DNA of 64,000 nt from Escherichia coli (GTDB lineage Bacteria > Pseudomonadota > Gammaproteobacteria > Enterobacterales > Enterobacteriaceae). Both the position numbers and the translations under genes were made by a program. This document shows positions 50,817-51,595 of this stretch, one piece after another (the stretch's first letter is position 1; each line of letters begins with the position of its first letter). Under the pieces are notes generated by a model. It had not been told where the DNA came from and made no database searches. It saw only the letters and a list, made by a program, of their open reading frames with translations. The stretch lies in assembly GCF_017348835.2 (NCBI RefSeq), contig NZ_CP071375.1. One strand, given 5' to 3'.

Positions 50817-50850
50817 TGAAAATGGCGCTTTATAAAGTGCCATTTTTTTA
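50817..50850 (+). terminator. intrinsic terminator after fdnI
   Basis: aatggcgc-tttataaa-gtgccatt hairpin followed by TTTTTTTA. Confidence 0.55.
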
Positions 50851-51132
50851 TTGCGTAACCAGACGGCGTAATCGCGACACATCCACCGTTTTTTCTGCCT
50901 CTGCCAGACTCCAGGCGTTTTGCAGATTCAGCCACATTTGCGGCGAACTGCCGATCACCACGGAAAGTTTAATTGCCATTTCTGGCGTCAAAGCTGCTTT
51001 TCCGGTCAGCAATCGGCTTGCCGTTGAGGGAGCAATTTCCATTGCTCTGGCAAACTCGCGCAGGCTGACATTAAGTTCGTCCAGTGATTCCTGAATAATG
51101 TCCCCCGGGCGGGGATGATTGGCCATTTTCAT
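50848..51132 (-). CDS. yddM: YddM HigA-like XRE-family HTH antitoxin/regulator
   Basis: 94-aa ORF with HTH ([24 protein letters not shown]); start overlaps stop of upstream toxin-like ORF. Confidence 0.88.
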
Positions 51133-51410
51133 CAGTGATAGTCCTCGTAATCCAGTATGTATGCATCGCCATTGACGAATTCAAATGTGATTCGCCAGTT
51201 GCCCGAGACAGATATCGCCCAAATTCCATCGCGATCGCCGCTTAACGGGTGTAGTCGGTAACCGGGCATATCGATATCAGCAAGACAGCTTGCTGCATCA
51301 ATCACAGCGAGTCGGTGGCGTAATCGTTTGACTTGCGTCGGTATAACGCCGGAGGTTTTGCCGAGAAGAAACAAGTCACGCAATCCCTTGTGTCTGAAAT
51401 TCATTATCAT
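51132..51410 (-). CDS. HigB-like toxin (RelE/ParE superfamily, killer-protein type)
   Basis: 92-aa [17 protein letters not shown]...[21 protein letters not shown]...DYEDYH matching the HigB-type family pattern as recalled; 1-nt stop/start overlap with yddM. Confidence 0.7.
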
Positions 51411-51421
51411 CTCTTCATCCT

Positions 51422-51456
51422 TGTTCCCTCGAAAGGAACAGTATCACTATTGTTCC
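51422..51456. promoter_or_regulatory. candidate operator palindromes upstream of the higB-like/yddM pair
   Basis: TGTTCC-N7-GGAACA-N10-TGTTCC (51422-51427, 51435-51440, 51451-51456) just upstream of the toxin start. Confidence 0.4.
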
Positions 51457-51595
51457 GTGCAGCGCAACAAATTTCGCTACGTTTTCGCAAATTGTGAGGG
51501 GAAAGATGGGGGAGGAAAAGAAGAAGAATGAAATTGCGGAAAGCGTCTCGCAAAACAGGCTGCGACCCGAACATGGGAGTCGCAGCAAAGGCCTC

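Follow-up and report, generated by a model that had tools for sequence, protein, structure and literature searches.

The closest relatives of known structure to the toxin described here are chains of HigB from the HigB-HigA module of the Proteus vulgaris plasmid Rts1 (PDB 4MCT/4MCX, 4PX8, 6CHV, 6W6U). In this module the gene of a 92-residue toxin precedes that of the antitoxin, and in its promoter, Phig, operator O1 lies over the −35 and operator O2 over the −10 element. Mutagenesis and ribosome-bound structures of Rts1 HigB identified H54, D90, Y91 and H92 as critical and R73 as contributory, and N71 as part of an adenosine-specific pocket (PMC5027501). We analyzed a 64-kb stretch of Escherichia coli DNA (hereafter the window) in which a toxin gene of this type, higB, lies upstream of and shares one base with yddM, the gene of a helix-turn-helix (HTH) XRE-type HigA antitoxin. 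We consider it very likely that this locus is an intact chromosomal type II HigBA toxin-antitoxin operon of the Rts1/Proteus 'HigB-like' (PF05015) branch. It has in common with Rts1 the length of the toxin, its catalytic residues, the toxin-first order and, as far as can be predicted, a parallel layout of promoter and operators. Unlike the plasmid-borne Rts1 module, it lies on the chromosome, at a syntenic position between fdnI and adhP. It further differs in the length of HigA (94 residues for YddM, 104 for Rts1), in its half-sites (TGTTCC/GGAACA with a 7-nt spacer instead of the compact TGTA-N-TACA) and in the distance between the operator centers, 29 bp as compared to about 22 bp in Rts1.

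GraT-GraA of Pseudomonas putida (PDB 6F8S, 6F8H) belongs to the same Pfam branch (E 3.8e-7 for the toxin, 1.8e-11 for the antitoxin) and is also toxin-first. The disordered N-terminus of GraT de-represses its promoter, whereas Rts1 HigB is ordered and the present HigB can be aligned with it from its first residue. GraA recognizes one 33-bp site around TAACGTTA, to which two dimers bind; the E. coli locus, in contrast, has two 19-bp palindromes.

E. coli K-12 has a HigB-HigA pair of the same name, ygjN-ygjM, with the same toxin-first order and a toxin that is an mRNA interferase of the RelE superfamily. This toxin presumably belongs to a different Pfam family (HigB_toxin) from the HigB-like_toxin family of the present HigB. 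The ygjN-ygjM pair is situated at fadH-rlmG and is a different locus from the pair at fdnI-adhP (PMC7232551). The distribution of the two is reciprocal: K-12 and HS have the fadH-rlmG pair complete and the present one as an orphan, CFT073 and NRG857c the reverse (PMC7232551). Bustamante and Vidal described the present pair in 2020 as TA20 ('ParE-2/HigA-2') of the adherent-invasive E. coli NRG857c, with genes of 279 and 285 nt sharing a base, and reported that 'only the antitoxin' is present in K-12 and HS (PMC7232551). HigA/YddM of CFT073 and TA20 of NRG857c represent the same locus, with the same gene sizes and, in NRG857c, the same overlap; the locus of the window is another strain's copy of it.

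The preliminary description of this DNA had proposed a 92-residue open reading frame (ORF) of the HigB type, a member of the RelE/ParE superfamily, placed ahead of yddM with an overlap of one nucleotide. Both the gene arrangement and the family held. The higB product matches Pfam PF05015 (HigB-like toxin) with E 1.5e-17, residues 4-92 covering positions 2-91 of the 91 in the model. The Rts1 HigB endoribonuclease chains are its best matches of known structure (4MCT_B, E 8e-32), followed by GraT. In BLASTP, 52 of 92 residues (57%) are identical between the E. coli and the Rts1 toxin, which are equal in length and align with 0 gaps. The loss of conserved catalytic residues, which the preliminary description had named as a refutation, has not occurred: in the ungapped alignment to 4MCT_B, H54, R73, D90, Y91 and H92 all stand at the positions they have in Rts1 HigB, as does N71. 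All six are also found in each of the 15 intact orthologs, down to the most distant one with only 62% identity. The ratio of nonsynonymous to synonymous substitution rates (dN/dS) of higB against Citrobacter orthologs was 0.04-0.12 at dS values of about 0.7-1.6, and that of yddM was similar (0.04-0.10). The window HigB protein is 100% identical to that of E. coli E69 and, despite a dS of 0.14, to that of E. albertii. The toxin is thus under purifying selection, and since dN/dS is low and the catalytic residues are kept in the 15 intact orthologs, the window allele of higB looks functional; its toxicity is predicted by homology.

YddM, which the preliminary description had called HigA-like, indeed passed the NCBIfam HigA equivalog TIGR02607 with 93.7 bits against a cutoff of 47.7. 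It is identical in 94 of 94 residues to PDB 2ICP/2ICT, 'antitoxin HigA', named in a review as YddM of E. coli CFT073, the structure of which was published in 2010. With Rts1 HigA it aligns over residues 7-87 (E 1e-18). The DNA-contact residues S23, T37, R40 and K45 of Rts1 HigA are kept in YddM, and T34 is replaced by Ala. The HTH recognition segment is invariant in the ortholog set. The overlap between the two genes was found in all orthologs (in tblastn, the HigB match runs up to 1776 and that of YddM begins at 1779, which with the stop codon included gives an overlap of 1 nt), and a terminator scan detected no terminator between higB and yddM. The TGATG overlap may couple the translation of the two genes.

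Upstream of higB, four half-sites follow one another, on the gene strand TGTTGC-GCTGCAC-GGAACA-ATAGTGATAC-TGTTCC-TTTCGAG-GGAACA, forming two 19-bp palindromes. On the plus strand they read TGTTCC (51422-51427), GGAACA (51435-51440), TGTTCC (51451-51456) and GCAACA (51464-51469). The first three had been seen correctly in the preliminary description, as a triple half-site. The fourth had been missed, so that the element is made of two palindromes and reaches 9 bp beyond the end it had been given. The motif TGTTCC-N7-GGAACA, with at most one mismatch, matches exactly twice in the 64 kb of the window, in each case at this site, for an expectation of 0.18; 1 of 100 shuffles reached two.

We compared this region in 22 sequences: the window, E. 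albertii, other Escherichia, about 14 Citrobacter, three Buttiauxella, one Cedecea and K-12-type alleles in which yddM is an orphan. Information content in the half-sites amounted to 2.00 and 1.93 bits per column in the distal and 1.90 and 1.87 in the proximal operator. The 7-nt internal spacers had 0.83 (distal) and 1.06 (proximal), the 30 nt upstream 0.40 and the 12 nt after the proximal operator 0.72. In the 10-nt spacer between the operators, T-N2-TG-N-T was invariant (2.0 bits), the A that follows had 1.47 bits, and the neighboring positions varied. The resulting consensus is TGTTGCG-N6-GGAACA-nTnnTGnTAn-TGTTCC-N7-GGAAC. Its distal left half-site is always TGTTGC and never TGTTCC, and TGTTGCG is invariant in 22/22 sequences. 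The palindromes sit 12-14 nt before higB, also in Buttiauxella and Cedecea, where adhP is not adjacent. In K-12-type strains, which lack higB, both operators and the spacer motif are retained directly in front of yddM. With two motif matches for an expected 0.18 and half-sites conserved across genera, the palindromes are more than a chance occurrence, and very probably they are the autoregulatory HigA operator, as the preliminary description had suggested for the three half-sites.

The conserved positions, together with the analogy to Phig, point to a sigma-70 promoter embedded in the operators, with a −35 element TTGCGn, an 18-nt spacer, a TG-extended −10 element TAnnGT and a start near 51431. 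We further suppose that one HigA dimer binds per palindrome and reads the inner TTCC/GGAA cores, which are about 11 bp apart. A separation of about 35 Å between the HTH motifs, similar to that in GraA, has been reported for the E. coli HigA dimer, and one dimer per 19-bp palindrome, its recognition helices being separated by about one turn of DNA, fits this distance. In the openly accessible literature we found no description of this four-half-site operator model (TGTTSC-N7-GGAACA twice, over a TG-extended promoter).

A different palindrome, likewise embedded in the promoter, accompanies distant HigB homologues (50-55% identity) from Desulfobulbaceae, Pseudomonadota and Chloroflexi metagenome-assembled genomes (MAGs), several of the MAG loci reading TTGACA-n-GTAACC-N5/6-GGTTAC-A-nT. 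This points to a constant architecture in which operator specificity varies with the HigA lineage.

Taken together with what is known from Rts1, the operon may work as follows. A single promoter would drive higB and then higA (yddM). By homology, HigB would be a ribosome-dependent endoribonuclease that moves into the ribosomal A site to cleave mRNA at codons containing A, with H54 as base, R73 as transition-state stabilizer and the C-terminal D90-Y91-H92 as acid and support. YddM/HigA would be a stable dimeric HTH protein that, probably in a HigB2-HigA2 complex, binds HigB and prevents its access to the ribosome; such a neutralization by direct binding is suggested by the Rts1 HigB2-HigA2 structures. 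Alone or in the complex, YddM/HigA would also bind both palindromes, which overlap the −35 and the extended −10/+1 region, and the operon would thereby repress itself.

Features of the higB-yddM locus, in window coordinates; sequences are given as on the gene strand
Feature	Position	Strand	Description
higB	51132..51410	minus	92-residue toxin, by family a HigB-type ribosome-dependent mRNA endonuclease; ATG start, TGA stop at 51132-51134
yddM (= higA)	50848..51132	minus	94-residue HTH-XRE protein, by family antitoxin and autorepressor
TGATG stop/start overlap	51130..51134	minus	read from the sequence; higB and yddM share base 51132 only
Shine-Dalgarno AAGGA	51418..51422	minus	7 nt 5' of the higB ATG; read from the sequence
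Proximal operator	51422..51440	minus	TGTTCC-TTTCGAG-GGAACA, perfect 6+7+6 palindrome, 0 mismatches
Distal operator	51451..51469	minus	TGTTGC-GCTGCAC-GGAACA, 1 mismatch
Putative TG-extended −10	51438..51446	minus	TG-A-TACTGT; runs from the inter-operator spacer 3 nt into the proximal operator; from conservation
Putative −35	51462..51467	minus	TTGCGC; inside the distal left half-site, 18 nt from the −10; from conservation and analogy to Rts1 Phig
adhP intrinsic terminator	51559..51586	minus	10-bp stem with 7 GC pairs and T-rich tail; upstream bound of the hig promoter region
fdnI/yddM convergent-gene hairpin	50819..50849		flanked by an A-run and a T-run; read from the sequence; overlaps the yddM stop codon

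At the position of the higB Shine-Dalgarno sequence, a purine-rich AGGA/GGGA is kept in orthologs. The locus is bordered by fdnH/fdnI (plus strand, ending at 50797) on one side and by adhP (minus strand) on the other, and the adhP terminator limits the non-coding DNA available to the hig promoter to about 150 nt. The hairpin between the convergent fdnI and yddM is likely a bidirectional terminator; the terminator scan made no call on it. A scan of 50700-51700 against Rfam revealed no RNA gene and gave only two weak matches below threshold, both on this hairpin. In the window the gap between fdnI and yddM (50798-50847) measures 50 nt and holds this one hairpin. In other strains it is 228 nt, longer by about one unit of the kind seen in MG1655, where some 356 extra nt consist of two tandem units of about 178 nt rich in palindromes similar to REP/BIME. 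Three other ORFs, 50804..51094 on the plus strand (96 residues), 51328..51531 on the plus strand (67 residues) and 51071..51229 on the minus strand (52 residues), were regarded as incidental to the conserved genes, which lie on the opposite strand or in another frame. The ORF listed by program for adhP (window 51596-52636, 346 residues) exceeds the annotated AdhP of 336 residues by 10 codons, the annotated start being the internal MKAAV; this is an artefact of the listing.

The preliminary description had also considered the pair a possibly overlooked K-12 module, and this did not stand. A query of 811 nt across the locus found its best match in E. coli PE164, which was isolated from a pig, with 100% identity. 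In MG1655 the query matched with its fdnI/yddM part only, 43% of its length, and a K-12 origin of the window was rejected on these grounds. In MG1655 yddM (b1477) and adhP are 145 bp apart, the operators are present and higB is missing. Neither is the pair overlooked: besides its description as TA20 and the structure of its antitoxin, the RefSeq annotation by PGAP in PE164 contains both genes, as 'type II toxin-antitoxin system RelE/ParE family toxin' (WP_000605676.1) and 'HigA family addiction module antitoxin', and TADB 3.0 has an entry for the pair as higBA. It is thus an already catalogued locus of a known kind.

Distribution was assessed in 5426 complete E. coli genomes. The antitoxin gene yddM is present in 5412 of them (about 99.7%), and higB DNA in 1330; some three quarters of E. 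coli, and K-12 likewise, no longer have the toxin and retain the antitoxin alone. While the window allele of higB is intact, frameshifts do occur among strains: a 1-nt deletion in codon 33 (window 51313), recognized by an exact 34-mer, was found in 545 genomes, among them the ST131-like JJ2434, and this allele is marked 'frameshifted' by PGAP. The uninterrupted 35-mer at the same site was found in at least 611 genomes, including Nissle 1917, NRG857C and the type strain ATCC 11775; in NRG857c this intact-site probe falls inside the TA20 toxin gene. A minor allele has an in-frame deletion of 9 bp (window 51328-51336), by which Q26-V27-K28 are gone and 89 residues are left (WP_000605680.1). A rare third type of loss occurs in O157:H7 TR01, where a deletion begins within the inter-operator spacer and extends to about nt 232 of higB. 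The −10 and the proximal operator are gone, along with about 230 nt of higB; the distal operator and yddM remain, as do the final 47 nt of the toxin gene. To judge from its sequence, the TR01 haplotype is a mosaic, its upstream flank being of the window type and its operator spacer of the K-12 type. Between higB-bearing and K-12-type haplotypes, which agree to about 99% in yddM, window positions 51470-51558, from the adhP terminator to the distal operator, are unalignable. In about 1250 genomes, higB is missing and less than 80% of the K-12-type spacer is present.

Outside E. coli, the order fdnI-yddM-higB-adhP is common to E. albertii and Citrobacter. In three Citrobacter loci higB has decayed independently, by 5' truncation, by a frameshift and down to the first 27 codons, with yddM and fdnI intact; two of the three still carry both operators. 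A search for close relatives on plasmids gave no evident circulating copy: the plasmid relatives are less than 60% identical with the exception of three records, and one of these, a 'plasmid' of 4.9 Mb, must in fact be a chromosome. Because of the shared synteny and, barring these three records, the low identity of the plasmid relatives, the module is an old chromosomal one that is being eroded toxin first and not a recent mobile acquisition. Toxin loss has occurred independently at least six times, by two deletions in E. coli, the frameshift of 545 genomes and the three decays in Citrobacter; a seventh case may be the E. coli allele shortened in frame by 9 bp.

Several observations weigh against an intact and active operon. 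About 4100 of the 5426 genomes have no higB and 545 of the 1330 that bear it are frameshifted, so that the toxin is dispensable and often broken. Norton and Mulvey saw no significant defect in mouse urinary-tract colonization upon deletion of 'higBA' from CFT073; this probably was the present locus, since the other two hig-type loci of CFT073 have no functional toxin (PMC7232551). The toxin passed no HigB-specific NCBIfam model, and for RelE_StbE (TIGR02385) it scored 17.8 bits with a cutoff of 27.9. K57 and R69 of Rts1 HigB are both Ser in E. coli HigB; of these, K57 contacts the A5 nucleobase via its backbone, and K57A alone had no effect on the toxicity of Rts1 HigB (PMC5027501). A generic sigma-70 promoter scan found no promoter at its threshold, and the proposed −10 hexamer TACTGT, matching in 3 of 6 positions, relies on its TG extension. 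Rts1 HigA reads a more compact TGTA-N-TACA with contact G's 6 bp apart, and therefore its binding geometry is not simply transferable. In the openly accessible literature we found no experiment on this particular HigB and no mapping of its operator, and toxicity and neutralization rest on homology. The repeated losses of higB (the K-12-type deletion, the frameshift, the 9-bp deletion, the TR01 deletion and the three Citrobacter decays) and the absence of a colonization phenotype in CFT073 would suit a toxin ORF that is an inactive relic, attenuated or full length by chance and heading for the loss that most E. coli have undergone, in a locus working as a yddM regulator gene alone. We consider this quite improbable for the window allele, given a protein identical to that of E. 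albertii and E. coli E69, the complete set of catalytic residues, at least 611 genomes uninterrupted at the frameshift site and a dN/dS of 0.04-0.12 at dS of about 1, which is not expected of a relic. Names such as 'ParE-2' (PMC7232551) and 'RelE/ParE family toxin' (PGAP), and the fold and superfamily that ParE and RelE share, could suggest a gyrase poison of the ParE type instead of an mRNA endonuclease. The sole Pfam match of the toxin is PF05015, however, with no ParE_toxin domain at E <= 10; its PDB matches are all HigB or GraT, the Rts1 HigB chains being the best; it has H54 and the HigB-specific C-terminal DYH; and TADB files the pair as higBA. A gyrase poison is therefore extremely improbable, and the label 'ParE-2' in NRG857c is unsupported by the present evidence.

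As to the palindromes, the different motif recognized by Rts1 HigA might mean that they are chance repeats, or the site of another regulator of adhP or fdn. For a site that occurs nowhere else in the 64 kb, that keeps its distance to higB even where adhP is not adjacent, that travels with yddM when higB is deleted and whose orthologs have the YddM recognition segment invariant, this is a highly improbable account. Another view would place the main selected function in YddM, acting as a transcription factor or providing immunity against incoming HigB-type toxins, with HigB as an optional passenger, or would assign the intact pair to phage defence. The far wider presence of yddM than of higB speaks for a function of YddM. 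YddM of the K-12-type orphan strains is, moreover, the identical protein to that of the window, with 3 synonymous differences between the genes, and the orphans retain the operators. K-12 YddM is treated as an uncharacterized Xre-family transcription factor with ChIP-exo binding sites (PMC6237786), and in a screen the Keio yddM mutant was hypersusceptible to epetraborole, a result that was not complemented. Substitutions between the alleles are few, however, and retention may simply reflect recent loss; with plasmid relatives below 60% identity except in three records, cross-immunity is speculative. As for phage defence, the toxin matched no anti-phage family in PADLOC (0 families), and the antitoxin gave only weak HTH matches to candidate-system models (best E 6.7e-5). 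On the whole we find this view possible, though unlikely, and retain that of an intact HigBA operon in the window.

The HigBA locus explains the origin of K-12 yddM (b1477): it is the orphan antitoxin of a deleted HigB, behind ancestral operators. Because the YddM of K-12 hosts does not differ from the cognate antitoxin, toxicity tests of this HigB would need a ΔyddM background. The most interesting aspect of the locus is the repeated loss of the toxin next to an unchanged antitoxin, which offers a natural series of toxin-loss alleles, including one that has become fixed in 545 genomes forming an ST131-like group. Since the toxin was lost repeatedly while the YddM protein stayed unchanged and the two-operator promoter was kept, we tentatively propose, as something possible rather than probable, that YddM is a domesticated antitoxin selected for a job independent of the toxin, be it as regulator of a small regulon or as standing immunity against incoming HigB-type toxins. 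If this were true, the intact pair of the window would represent the ancestral state of a K-12 'y-gene' regulator.

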